From sequence record MH917278: 50,219 nucleotides of DNA, one strand, 5' to 3'. This stretch comes from Shigella phage phi2457T. Below the pieces are notes generated by a model. That model was not told the DNA's origin and did no database searches. It saw nothing but the letters and a program-made list of their open reading frames with translations. Positions 7,091 to 47,465 of the stretch are shown piece by piece. Position 1 is the stretch's first letter. Every line of letters begins with the position of its first letter. A program made the position numbers and the translations under genes.

Positions 7091-7663
7091 ATGAAAACAG
7101 CTATCATTTTAAACGGCGCTCCTGGAGCAGGCAAGGACACTATCGGATGCATCCTGGCTGACACTTACGATCATGTAGCTTTGCGCAGCTTCAAAGCACC
7201 AATGTTTGAGATTGCTCGGGCAATCCTGGGTGAGGCTAACTACGAGTATTTCATGTTCTTGTATGGGAACCGTATATACAAAGAAGAGCCAGATTCCATC
7301 CTGAACGGTAAAAGCCCGCGCCAGTTTATGATCTGGATTAGCGAGGAAGTCATTAAGCCACAGTTCGGAAATCGCTTCTTCGGCATGCGAGCGGAAAGCA
7401 AGGTCAAAGAATCAGACTCCCTTTCGGTATTTACTGATGGTGGATTCAAAGATGAGGTATTGCAGATGATTGAAGGTGATATCCAGGTCAAGCTATGCCG
7501 AATCCACCGCAAAGGCTGCAACTTTGACAACGACAGTCGTGATTATATTTACCTGGAAGATATGATCGGGGTTAATGGTTATCAGGAGTGTGATTTCTTC
7601 TCTGTCGAAGGTCATCCAGAAATTACCGCTCAGCACATAGCCGCTACGTTCATCAACAAATAG
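7091..7663 (+). CDS. P-loop nucleotide kinase (dNMP-kinase-like)
   Basis: Walker A GAPGAGKDT at N-terminus; size ~190 aa typical of small NMP/dNMP kinases. Confidence 0.5.
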   Translation: MKTAIILNGAPGAGKDTIGCILADTYDHVALRSFKAPMFEIARAILGEANYEYFMFLYGNRIYKEEPDSILNGKSPRQFMIWISEEVIKPQFGNRFFGMRAESKVKESDSLSVFTDGGFKDEVLQMIEGDIQVKLCRIHRKGCNFDNDSRDYIYLEDMIGVNGYQECDFFSVEGHPEITAQHIAATFINK

Positions 7664-8286: not shown

Positions 8287-8516
8287 TGTTTGGTTTAAGT
8301 GAAGCGGAATGGAACGTGGTAAAGCGCGCGGCGAAGGAATTGAATAAATTTGTTAGCGGAATGAAGAAGGAAGATCGCAAAAACGAAAAGATTATGATTG
8401 ATGTGATCTCAACTCATCACAAAAAGGTTGAGCTACTCATCGACCGCTACAAGTTTGTATGGACCGCCGGATATATTGCAGGGCGCGTAGGTAACAAAGA
8501 GGGTGATTACGAATAA
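8286..8516 (+). CDS. hypothetical protein (76 aa)
   Basis: ORF track; SD gggag; TAATG coupling. Confidence 0.4.
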   Translation: MFGLSEAEWNVVKRAAKELNKFVSGMKKEDRKNEKIMIDVISTHHKKVELLIDRYKFVWTAGYIAGRVGNKEGDYE

Positions 8517-8719
8517 TGGCTAACTTACCGAAGAAAGGCGATCAGGTTCGATGTGTTACATCACGCAATGGTGATGCTTTCTCAGCGGGATGCTTGTATG
8601 ACGTTGAAAAAGTAAGTAAAGCAAAGAGACTCGTATTTGTATACGGAGACGATGGAAATATTCATGAGATTGACTACCCGCAGGATATTACTAAGGGCCA
8701 ATTTGAAATTAATGATTGA
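8516..8719 (+). CDS. hypothetical protein, paralogous-family-like (67 aa)
   Basis: ORF track; VRCVTSRNGDAFSAGCLYDV resembles the KC(I/V)...G.IY motif. Confidence 0.4.
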   Translation: MANLPKKGDQVRCVTSRNGDAFSAGCLYDVEKVSKAKRLVFVYGDDGNIHEIDYPQDITKGQFEIND

Positions 8720-8883
8720 CCTGAATCTCTGAGCGGTGATAGTATTAATCCCGTAGACAGACGAGGCGCAAATAAGCGCAACGCGTGAGACGATTCTCAC
8801 ACTTCCAGCTAACAAGCTCGGTTGCATAGTGGTTAAGCAACGCCGCAGACCCGTAAGCGGCAACAATTCAAGAGGATTGCGTA

Positions 8884-9045
8884 ATGCAAAATATCAAAAA
8901 CGAATCAGTCAAAATCGAAATTAAAGTAACTCGCAACGGCAAAACAACTCGTTATAAAAAGCGGTTAAATCATGGAGAGGCTGTTATTGGTCGCATCGAT
9001 GGCGTTATGATTAAGGCGCAAGAAGATGAAGCGATTCAAAGTTAA
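8884..9045 (+). CDS. hypothetical small protein (53 aa)
   Basis: ATG with strong SD aagagga; below ORF-track length cutoff. Confidence 0.3.
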   Translation: MQNIKNESVKIEIKVTRNGKTTRYKKRLNHGEAVIGRIDGVMIKAQEDEAIQS

Positions 9046-9448: not shown

Positions 9449-9471
9449 AACCCGCTACGGCGGGTTTTTTT
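9449..9471 (+). terminator. rho-independent terminator
   Basis: Hairpin cccgctacggcggg followed by TTTTTTT. Confidence 0.65.
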
Positions 9472-9490: not shown

Positions 9491-9509
9491 ATAGCACTAA
9501 ATGTTAAAC
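9491..9509 (+). promoter_or_regulatory. conserved intergenic element copy upstream of terminase small subunit
   Basis: atagcactaaatgttaaac preceded by ctgcaatatgg -10-like. Confidence 0.45.
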
Positions 9510-11657: not shown

Positions 11658-11711
11658 TAAATGAGATATAATCAAGGCTGTCAATTGACGGCCTTTTTTA
11701 TTGGAGGAAAC

Positions 11712-44206: not shown

Positions 44207-44270
44207 GATGTTTTCCTTCAGGTCGTTTAATTTCGATGAAACAAATATACCCGATACGAGATCGGGTGTT

Positions 44271-47387: not shown

Positions 47388-47446
47388 CTTTAATTCCTTT
47401 GTTTGTTTGGTGTGGGAGTAATATACCTTACTCCCGGTTTGTTGTC

Positions 47447-47465
47447 TTTAGCTATTCGTGCTATC
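47447..47465 (-). promoter_or_regulatory. conserved intergenic element copy (minus orientation)
   Basis: Plus strand tttagctattcgtgctatc; hairpin gggagta...tactccc downstream on minus strand. Confidence 0.45.

Follow-up and report, generated by a model that had tools for sequence, protein, structure and literature searches.

A predicted promoter and structured RNA leader in an intergenic gap of Shigella phage phi2457T and its T1-like relatives

Shigella phage phi2457T (MH917278) has a gap without genes at positions 8720-8883 of its 50,219-nucleotide (nt) sequence, the whole of which is referred to here as the window. An initial annotation, made from the letters alone, had described this gap as lying in a tightly packed region, had pointed to palindromes within it, one of them resembling positions 1-17, and had suggested a small RNA or a binding site. 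What does the gap carry, and does it act as DNA, as RNA or as protein-coding sequence? Comparison with related phages indicates that pairing in four of its RNA helices (H1, H2, H4 and H5) is under selection on the plus strand, as shown computationally, and that its 3' part represents a viral RNA motif of wider occurrence, so far undescribed, which is shown in the same manner. Our preferred reading, to which we assign a probability of about 0.6, is a promoter plus a cis-acting, structured non-coding 5' leader. The features on which the argument turns are given below, all on the plus strand.

8716..8721, plus strand: predicted -35 hexamer TTGACC from a consensus scan, overlapping the TGA stop (8717-8719) of the orf58 homolog
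8729..8736, plus strand: CTGAnnGG motif in the promoter spacer, present in every lineage
8737..8745, plus strand: predicted extended -10, TG-a-TAGTAT, with an 18-nt spacer to the -35 and TG at -15/-14
8753..8765, plus strand: predicted start G8753 and single-stranded 5' end GUAGACAGACGAG; family consensus GUARACnnAnGAG
8766..8779, plus strand: hairpin H1, GCGC-AAAUAA-GCGC; conserved AACG(C) comes next, at 8780-8784
8785..8800, plus strand: hairpin H2, GUGAGA-CGAU-UCUCAC, all five counted pairs compensatory
8807..8818, plus strand: hairpin H3, AGCU-AACA-AGCU, from folding only, in Tunavirus only, weak
8814..8866, plus strand: 3' module, made of the (A)AUCG-like anchor CUCG, H4, H5 and an AAC flank; top match in the window of covariance model R1
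8821..8841, plus strand: hairpin H4, GUUGC-AUAGUGGUUAA-GCAAC, the GTTGCAT..GCAAC palindrome of the initial annotation
8842..8861, plus strand: hairpin H5, GCCGC-AGACCCGUAA-GCGGC, abutting H4; its loop ends in invariant CGUAA
8862..8883, plus strand: conserved flank AACAAUUCA with the Shine-Dalgarno sequence AAGAGG at 8870-8875; orf57 homolog starts with ATG at 8884
8865..8880, plus strand: hairpin over the Shine-Dalgarno sequence, from folding
9449..9466, plus strand: intrinsic terminator AACCCGCUACGGCGGGUU plus U7, which would close a leader-orf57-orf56-orf55 unit just 5' of the small terminase subunit gene

The flanking open reading frames (ORFs; 8516..8719 and 8884..9045) and the limits of the gap were confirmed, as were the three palindromes (8766-8779, 8785-8800 and 8821-8841), and folding added three hairpins that had not been reported (8842-8861, 8807-8818 and 8865-8880). 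Coding was rejected for either strand. Stops occur in all three plus frames of 8720-8883, the sole plus-strand ORF touching the gap (31 amino acids, GTG start, 8829..8924) has no PHROG match, and a minus-strand ORF of 94 amino acids (8582..8866, TTG start), open in close relatives, is broken in phages LF82-10 and NBD2 and likewise finds no PHROG match. The proposal of a small RNA or a binding site was partly apt: the gap is non-coding, it holds RNA helices with compensatory changes, and the predicted sigma-70 promoter is a type of binding site that the annotation had not named. Nothing points to an independent small RNA in this genome, there being no terminator within the gap, and for this reason the RNA is most simply taken as the 5' leader of the next three genes.

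Compensatory change in the helices of the gap

With the orf58 protein as query, tblastn located the syntenic gap in 102 phage records, the most distant at 40% protein identity. Gaps were extracted from 14 Drexlerviridae, and a degenerate DNA pattern added 82 IMG/VR loci, 9 of them chance matches. In true members the order of parts is constant, namely promoter, 5' module, variable linker, 3' module and then a Shine-Dalgarno sequence or a transfer RNA (tRNA); a large group of relatives carries the promoter and 5' module only (the short leader, found in many IMG/VR loci, K62PH164C2 and KMI8). Plain MAFFT misplaced hairpin arms, and because its alignments of hairpins were not structure-consistent we used manual N-padded alignments, in which helices were anchored by an explicit best-hairpin parse, loops were padded with N and rows of equal length were imported, MAFFT leaving these rows ungapped. 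Shigella phage vB_SsoS_008 (MK335533) was excluded from the alignments. It carries an unusual cluster of substitutions that breaks H2 and H5 and disturbs the flanking ORFs, which looks like a sequence-quality problem rather than biology.

Across 51 distinct sequences of the 5' module (H1 and H2), 97.6% of cells were paired, and across 19 distinct sequences of the 3' module (H4 and H5) 97.1%, both percentages being inflated by a best-hairpin parse near a fixed anchor. Less affected by this bias are the counts of compensatory pair types, 7 of 9 pairs in the 5' module and 8 of 9 in the 3' module, and the slide control. The covariation score was 0.694 for the 5' module and 0.790 for the 3' module against 0.172 in shuffles in either case (0/500 reached the observed value), and partners slid out of register gave at most 0.128 and 0.107, respectively. 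A model-made alignment of 32 sequences of the 3' module had 9 of 10 pairs compensatory, and all five measures stood at 0/500 in shuffles.

The individual helices differ in how far they vary. Cells of the four H1 pairs were paired in 98.5% of cases, two of the pairs are compensatory (GC/CG/UA and CG/GC/AU), and the outer one is G-U in five sequences. H2 appears with about 11 different stem sequences at the same position. For H4 all four counted pairs are compensatory and 97.4% paired; the model-made alignment raises this to five of five pairs and 100%, a percentage inflated in turn, as such an alignment leans to its own model. Four of the five H5 pairs are compensatory, with U-G and G-U pairs on the plus strand, and C40, G41, U42 and A43 of the alignment are invariant. 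The G-U and U-G pairs of H1, H2 and H5 become A-C mismatches on the opposite strand, and the RNA is therefore assigned to the plus strand. The region of H3 holds other inserts in other genera, and H3 is broken in one Tunavirus variant.

Folding and covariance analysis, proposed in the initial annotation as a check, gave a divided result: covariation across relatives is strong, and the single-sequence fold is not significant (z = -1.72; 10/200 shuffles fold as well). Evidence beyond chance for structure in the gap comes only from the comparison with relatives.

The word GTTGCAT..GCAAC, suggested as something to seek in other genomes, is not kept in other genera. H4 stems there read TTGC/GCAA, GGC/GCC, TGC/GCA, TTGG/CCAA, CUAU/AUAG or UCGAG/CUCGA, and since stem sequence changes this freely, what is conserved in H4 is pairing and not letters. 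The supposed likeness to positions 1-17 holds at the letter level, with two occurrences of the word in the window against 0.10 expected and at least two in 1/100 shuffles, for a pattern that was defined only after the data had been seen; as a shared motif it fails. Positions 1-17 form a different palindrome, (G/A)TTGCA-YGRTG-TGCAAC, kept as sequence among Tunavirus genomes, and R1, a covariance model of the H4-H5 motif described below, gives no match there. The 12 letters common to the two places are best taken as a coincidence. In alignment, the first position of the window falls on position 1 of T1, the start of its annotated 2.8-kb terminal repeat, so that the window is a complete T1-like (Tunavirus) genome in T1 orientation.

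These results bear on whether the palindromes could work at the DNA level, as protein-binding sites or as a packaging or replication signal related to positions 1-17. Palindromes can bind dimeric proteins, GTTGCAT..GCAAC is found at both 1-17 and 8821-8841, and only 600 bp separate the gap from the small terminase subunit gene downstream. However, the stems vary in sequence with pairing kept and use G-U pairs, which fits RNA rather than a recognition site in DNA, and the palindrome at the start of the T1 terminal repeat is another one (TTGCA-N5-TGCAA). Of all explanations weighed here, we give this one the least credence. The left end has features of its own: positions 1-130 and 200-300 contain the palindrome, repeated TGATTGTTGC-like words and a second TTGC-N7-GCAA, kept among Tunavirus, and 3' of the palindromes there is an AT-rich (TA)n stretch with several promoter-like sites. 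This part may be a packaging or early-promoter region.

The predicted promoter, the 5' module and the transcription unit

The 5' edge of the gap has the layout of a sigma-70 promoter, for which hexamers like TTGACA and TATAAT should lie 16-18 nt apart; here they read TTGACC, 18 nt, TAGTAT, and this layout is kept in 50 distinct sequences from at least 10 lineages. In all 50 the -35 is TTGACN (TTGCAT in Rtp-like phages) with a spacer of 17-18 nt. A TAnnnT hexamer stands 7 nt before GTARAC in all lineages (6 nt in 3/50), with TGn in most, and the 7-nt discriminator is variable, conservation starting abruptly at GTARAC, that is, at the predicted +1. Because of the fixed 7-nt distance to the -10 and the onset of conservation at this point, we infer a transcript start at about G8753 (about 7624 in T1 coordinates). 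The CTGAnnGG motif lies 7 nt further from the -10 in Rtp-like phages, while the -35/-10 spacing stays at 17. A recent re-annotation of phage TLS reports only three sigma-70 promoters (PMC11447400); of these, P01 and P51, the two taken from its supplementary table for comparison, are not syntenic with the gap promoter.

Nowhere in the region is conservation higher than in the first 13 nt of the predicted transcript, which should be unpaired according to the fold; the motif GUAGACAGACGAG is unique in the window. Such a 5' end might be the seed of a trans-acting small regulatory RNA, GUARACnnAnGAG pairing with host or phage messenger RNAs and the hairpins lending stability. The short-leader relatives (L031, L038, K62PH164C2 and KMI8, together with L022, L025 and about 30 more IMG/VR loci) are in keeping with this idea. 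Their leader of about 57 nt consists of the 5' end, H1, a linker and a GC-rich H2; in the IMG/VR loci the linker reads CAAGUCU and the hairpin GCCCC-GCUUA-GGGGC, with UUUUAUU next in part of them. A U-run (GGGGCUUUUAUU) after H2 in part of the group gives the layout of an enterobacterial small RNA. Standing directly 5' of the orf56 homolog, this short leader resembles an attenuator or a small RNA with its own terminator. RNase P, moreover, would free the leader as a separate RNA in those relatives in which a tRNA follows it. The gap of the window, by contrast, has no terminator or U-run, from which it follows that the RNA continues into orf57, and the 3' module keeps a fixed distance from the ribosome-binding site, pointing to a role in cis. 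A BLAST search with the leader against 5,426 E. coli genomes gave no match, the search being blind to a 13-nt antisense site. We consider a trans-acting RNA unlikely.

The word CGTAGAC at the predicted start (8752-8758) recurs within H5 (GCCGTAGACCCGTAA) in LF82-10, NBD2, SRT8 and one Tunavirus (L002, L027, L029 and L044) and in the H4 region of Ec_L1-like phages (L020 and L093); the window has CGCAGAC at 8844-8850 in H5. This could be a repeated recognition word, or chance.

The gap is flanked by homologs of T1 orf58 (8516-8719) and orf57 (8884-9045), after which come orf56, orf55, the terminator at 9449-9466 and the genes of the small and large terminase subunits, the first of these about 600 bp from the gap. 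The T1 annotation carries a terminator at the equivalent place. At 164 base pairs (bp) the gap tops the surrounding 5 kb in the T1 annotation, its neighbours being 72 and 84 bp long, and the five neighbouring small proteins all belong to PHROG families without an assigned function. Over 901 bases centred on the gap, identity is 99.8% with Shigella phage Sfin-3 and 91-98% with many Tunavirus genomes; over the core 301 bases it is 93% with T1.

This arrangement raises the question of processive antitermination, in which a leader like HK022 put, or lambda Q acting at PR', would modify the polymerase so that it reads through 9449-9466 and the terminators of the late region. The promoter is about 700 nt 5' of a strong terminator followed by the terminase genes, and further terminator-like plus-strand hairpins lie downstream at 11674, 15364, 16219, 17236, 17572 and 19899. 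The spacer motif and the conservation from +1 recall Q-dependent late promoters, and the short-leader relatives and one further locus (L040) have a terminator-like hairpin right after the leader. Against this, no Q-like or N-like gene was identified, the 3' module is found in contigs with quite different gene contexts, and the late region has repeated intergenic elements of its own (ATAGCACnnnTTGnTAAA). The published view, that late genes of T1 form separate promoter-terminator modules (PMC11447400), also counts against antitermination, which we hold to be improbable.

The repeated element is an 18-nt direct repeat present in 36 copies at up to 3 mismatches in the window (5.8 expected; 0/100 shuffles reach 36). 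Copies occur at about 25 sites, for example at 1054, 1794, 2815, 4298, 5845, 6365, 7660 and 9491 on the plus strand, with others on the minus strand at 44270, 48798, 49215 and 103-120. Most are co-oriented with the local genes and stand just 5' of start codons. The copy at 9491 falls after the 9449 terminator and ahead of the gene for the small terminase subunit, and the sequence of the repeat matches the unexplained 21-base intergenic repeat of phage TLS (PMC11447400).

The 3' module, its neighbours and its copies in other viruses

Within the family the 3' module reads (A)AUCG, H4, 0-1 nt, H5 with a loop of 8-10 nt, and then AAC(C)AUUCA. What follows it differs. From the end of H5 to the Shine-Dalgarno sequence there are 8 nt in the window and 8-11 nt in lineages without a tRNA, and from the end of H5 to the 5' end of the tRNA 8-10 nt in LF82-10, NBD2 and ESCO41. 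ARAGORN places directly after H5 a tRNA-Ser(GCU) in LF82-10, NBD2, KLB19 and HazelMika, a tRNA-Arg(UCU) in ESCO41 and two Rtp-like contigs, and a tRNA-Arg(CCU) in AN_ECEAS, and this is the only tRNA gene of the region in LF82-10, NBD2, ESCO41, AN_ECEAS and the Rtp-like phages. It finds none after the leader in Tunavirus, SRT8, IME347, the Ec_L1-like group or the short-leader group. In ESCO41 (L024, about 1150-1255) the tRNA-Arg(UCU) is followed by a second tRNA-like stretch, CTCGGCG..GCAGGTTCGATTCCTGCCGCCGAG, not called by ARAGORN, and a minus-strand coding sequence annotated in the gap of this phage has no PHROG match.

The association with tRNA genes invites the view that the module is the decaying remnant, without present function, of a tRNA gene that once belonged to a small tRNA array, H4 descending from its D arm and H5 from its anticodon arm. 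The H4 loop AUAGUGGUUAA is D-loop-like, the two hairpins abut like D and anticodon stems, true tRNA genes lie directly downstream in four relative lineages, and a BLAST match of the gap overlapped an annotated tRNA-Ser. That match, however, is almost wholly upstream of the tRNA-Ser, and the D-loop-like sequence is limited to some genera. The H5 loop has 8-10 nt rather than 7, a T arm and an acceptor stem are lacking, ARAGORN finds no tRNA in the window, and neither ARAGORN nor the Rfam tRNA model (E<=10) reports one on the gap, both returning only the true tRNAs in relatives. Compensatory changes with and without adjoining tRNAs speak for continuing selection for the fold. The notion of a mere relic is thus largely refuted, and we regard it as very improbable.

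The module was also found in other viruses. Most matches from a loose scan of IMG/VR with AATCGG..CCGTAACC..AA were due to chance; 21 loci passed a filter for an H5 stem of 4 bp or more, and 17 distinct sequences had a full 5-bp stem. Three of the 17 are TLS-like phages at the syntenic site, and the remainder are unrelated viral contigs with the same architecture and other stems, for example AAAUCG GUCAC-AACGAUAUG-GUGAC UCUGG-AACCGUAA-CCAGA AAC. These seeds were found with a Drexlerviridae-derived pattern, and so AAUCGG and CCGUAACC are shared by construction; stem geometry is not. H4 was not part of the filter, yet it is 4-5 bp long and abuts H5 in all copies from unrelated contigs. Covariance model R1 was then built only from 12 non-Drexlerviridae sequences. 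On the whole window, with filters off, its best match is 8814-8866 on the plus strand (26 bits, E about 4e-4), and it matches most Drexlerviridae lineages once per locus. With default filters and E<=1 it misses the four loci with a 10-nt H5 loop, LF82-10, NBD2, SRT8 and IME347. A second match in the window, 47391-47441 on the minus strand (13 bits, E 0.36, hairpin GGGAGUAAGGUAUAUUACUCCC), just downstream of the minus-strand repeat at 47447-47464, is probably noise. We conclude that the 3' module of the window belongs to an undescribed RNA motif found more widely among viruses.

A strict pattern run on 185,579 bacterial and archaeal species genomes gave 5 matches, about the number estimated for chance. 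The sole convincing one (L238; NZ_VSMK01000220.1, 'Nitratidesulfovibrio liaohensis' NODE_2, 46.7 kb) is the genome of a T1-family phage, with an Rtp-like leader, a sequence like tRNA-Arg, a homolog of orf56 and the gene for a small terminase subunit; the phage was probably co-cultured or is a contaminant of the assembly. The gene contexts of the non-Drexlerviridae copies are mixed. Six are just upstream of a gene for an LpxH-like metallophosphoesterase, and others precede GATase/BPL_N-like or lipoprotein genes or follow porin-like, glycosyltransferase or PstS-like genes. A tie of the motif to the phosphoesterase was rejected, as Pelagibacter phage Mosig has a related gene without the motif. 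Some motif contigs have large tRNA arrays (37 tRNA genes in L166, 15 in L220) or a transfer-messenger RNA (tmRNA; L125 and L145/L211). These same contigs also carry glycosyltransferase, porin-like and LpxH-like genes and may be giant phage or misfiled bacterial DNA.

No family in Rfam 15 accounts for the element, at gathering or at permissive thresholds. There were 0 matches on the whole window, only noise from small nucleolar RNA models on 8650-8950 at E<=10, and only genuine tRNA and tmRNA on seven relatives and twelve non-Drexlerviridae loci; our literature search found no prior description of the gap element. The closest likeness is to the purine riboswitch. The B. subtilis xpt guanine aptamer sequence carries AAUCG, GAUAUGG (L2), CCGUAA (L3) and ACUAU (PMC4521916), and AAUCG, GAUAUGG-like sequence, CCGUAA and ACUAU recur in the loops and flanks of the non-Drexlerviridae copies; of these, the window retains CCGUAA (H5 loop) and, in H4, GUGG. 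In contrast to the riboswitch, H4 and H5 are separated by 0-1 nt instead of the 8-nt J2/3 strand, the stems have 4-5 bp and not 7, the H5 loop has 8-10 nt and not 7, and the motif has no link to purine metabolism genes. The Rfam Purine model (RF00167) has no match on 8650-8950 or the L145 copy at E<=10, nor on the seven relatives at E<=1. A three-way junction closed by a P1 helix, or pairing of the Shine-Dalgarno sequence, was rejected for Drexlerviridae, where flank-to-flank duplex energies are no better than those of shuffles. A J2/3-like GUUUCUAA upstream of some non-Drexlerviridae copies is a coincidence, being the Ser-Phe-stop codons of a porin-like gene.

Among the 25 sequences that have CC ahead of GUAA, 22 show GG within the H4 loop or at its end, and the three sequences lacking CC lack GG as well, so that GG and CC are jointly present or absent in 25/28, a correlation that rests on few independent lineages and is no true covariation. 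A loop-loop contact between GG and CC is plausible by analogy with the riboswitch, of which the H4-H5 motif would at most work like the P2-P3 scaffold; it is not a member of the class.

From here it is a short step to a riboswitch-like translational operator, in which H4, H5 and their flanks (AAUCG, AAC) would bind a ligand or protein and control ribosome access. Loops and flanks resembling the purine aptamer, invariant unpaired nucleotides that suggest a recognition surface, and the end of H5 at 7-12 nt 5' of a start codon or Shine-Dalgarno sequence in many unrelated contexts would suit such a device. Classical riboswitches are tied to a pathway. The genes downstream of this motif, however, are a mixture of small phage ORFs, tRNAs, LpxH-like phosphoesterases, GATase-like proteins and lipoproteins, the phosphoesterase gene of Mosig does without it, and the pocket-forming J2/3 of the purine aptamer, the P1 helix in Drexlerviridae and any match to the Purine model are all missing. 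We therefore judge an operator doubtful, marginally more so than a trans-acting RNA.

A proposed cis-acting leader and its likeness to known systems

If the gap is a promoter plus a cis-acting leader, as we favor, host RNA polymerase with sigma-70 would bind TTGACC and TG-a-TAGTAT and, judging from the comparison, start at about G8753. The leader of about 130 nt would comprise the single-stranded 5' end, H1, H2, the variable linker, UCG and the abutting H4 and H5, and the transcription unit would continue via orf57, orf56 and orf55 to the terminator at 9449-9466. H4 and H5 would probably dock by the GG:CC contact, as L2 and L3 of the purine riboswitch do, and so place a compact domain immediately 5' of a functional RNA, the ribosome-binding site here and a tRNA in some relatives. 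Acting in cis, this domain may set the fate of the downstream RNA by shielding it from 5'-end-dependent decay or processing, by gating ribosome access, or both, possibly through a bound factor. Any one specific effect is rated much lower than the promoter and cis-acting leader as such.

Several points weigh against this reading, beyond the single-sequence fold, the inflated pairing percentages and the few lineages behind the GG:CC correlation. Our literature search found no T1 transcript map and no transcript data for the region, so that start site and promoter activity are predictions. No terminator lies between the upstream genes and the gap, so that read-through transcripts would also contain the leader RNA. 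No one mechanism known so far would suit a motif that stands before tRNAs as well as start codons. A simple role as stabilizer or insulator does not explain the invariant, single-stranded 5' end; nor does it explain CTGAnnGG in the spacer, for which the usual requirements of sigma-70 do not account either. The word CGUAGAC, which several lineages repeat both at the start and within or close to H5, is likewise left unaccounted for. As the 5' end, CTGAnnGG and CGUAGAC are unexplained by a cis-acting leader, the trans-acting RNA, the operator and antitermination all retain some weight.

A bolder and rather unlikely extension is that the H4-H5 module represents a new class of virus-borne sensor or adaptor RNA derived from the purine-riboswitch fold. 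Such an RNA would retain the kissing-loop scaffold with a different junction, would switch the use of the adjoining start codon or tRNA, and would do so on binding a metabolite or else a factor from host or phage. Were this the case, T1-like coliphages would offer a tractable model. These phages are classic, common and troublesome in laboratories and industry, and their transcription signals are poorly mapped. The present comparison gives a predicted family-wide promoter with a precisely predicted start site, and it defines an RNA structure, strongly supported by covariation, for which Rfam has no entry. Since unrelated viral contigs share part of this structure, and since that part echoes the loop-loop scaffold of purine riboswitches, it could be a new class of regulatory RNA or a building block that RNAs reuse. 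That tRNAs stand right after the leader time and again shows where and how T1-like phages express acquired tRNAs.

Among known systems, the 21-base intergenic repeats of TLS (PMC11447400) are likewise conserved, non-coding, 5' of start codons and co-directional with transcription; the gap holds no copy of them (the nearest are at 7660 and 9491), and unlike these repeats its element is single-copy and structured. As for antitermination systems, the HK022 put RNA consists of two stem-loops with defined internal loops, binds RNA polymerase and suppresses termination in cis. Compared in position only, HK022 put, lambda PR'-qut and the 6S RNA late promoter share with the gap a promoter-proximal RNA with two adjacent stem-loops, conserved sequence in or after the promoter, and a downstream terminator followed by packaging and structural genes; Rfam has no put model, and the HK022 immunity region gave no Rfam match. 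The tRNA region of phage T4 yields stable RNAs, species 1 and 2. Similar to these RNAs and to the leaders of tRNA transcription units are the promoter and leader directly 5' of a tRNA in the relatives, whereas no tRNA follows in the window or in most lineages. Finally, an ordinary sigma-70 promoter with a structured leader, as in E. coli ompA or T4 gene 32, compares with the gap in its consensus-like -35 and extended -10, in a long folded leader ending just 5' of the ribosome-binding site and in a terminator that closes a short operon. In contrast to those leaders, the 5' end here is single-stranded and invariant in place of a protective 5' hairpin, the leader of relatives precedes tRNA genes, and part of it recurs in unrelated viruses.

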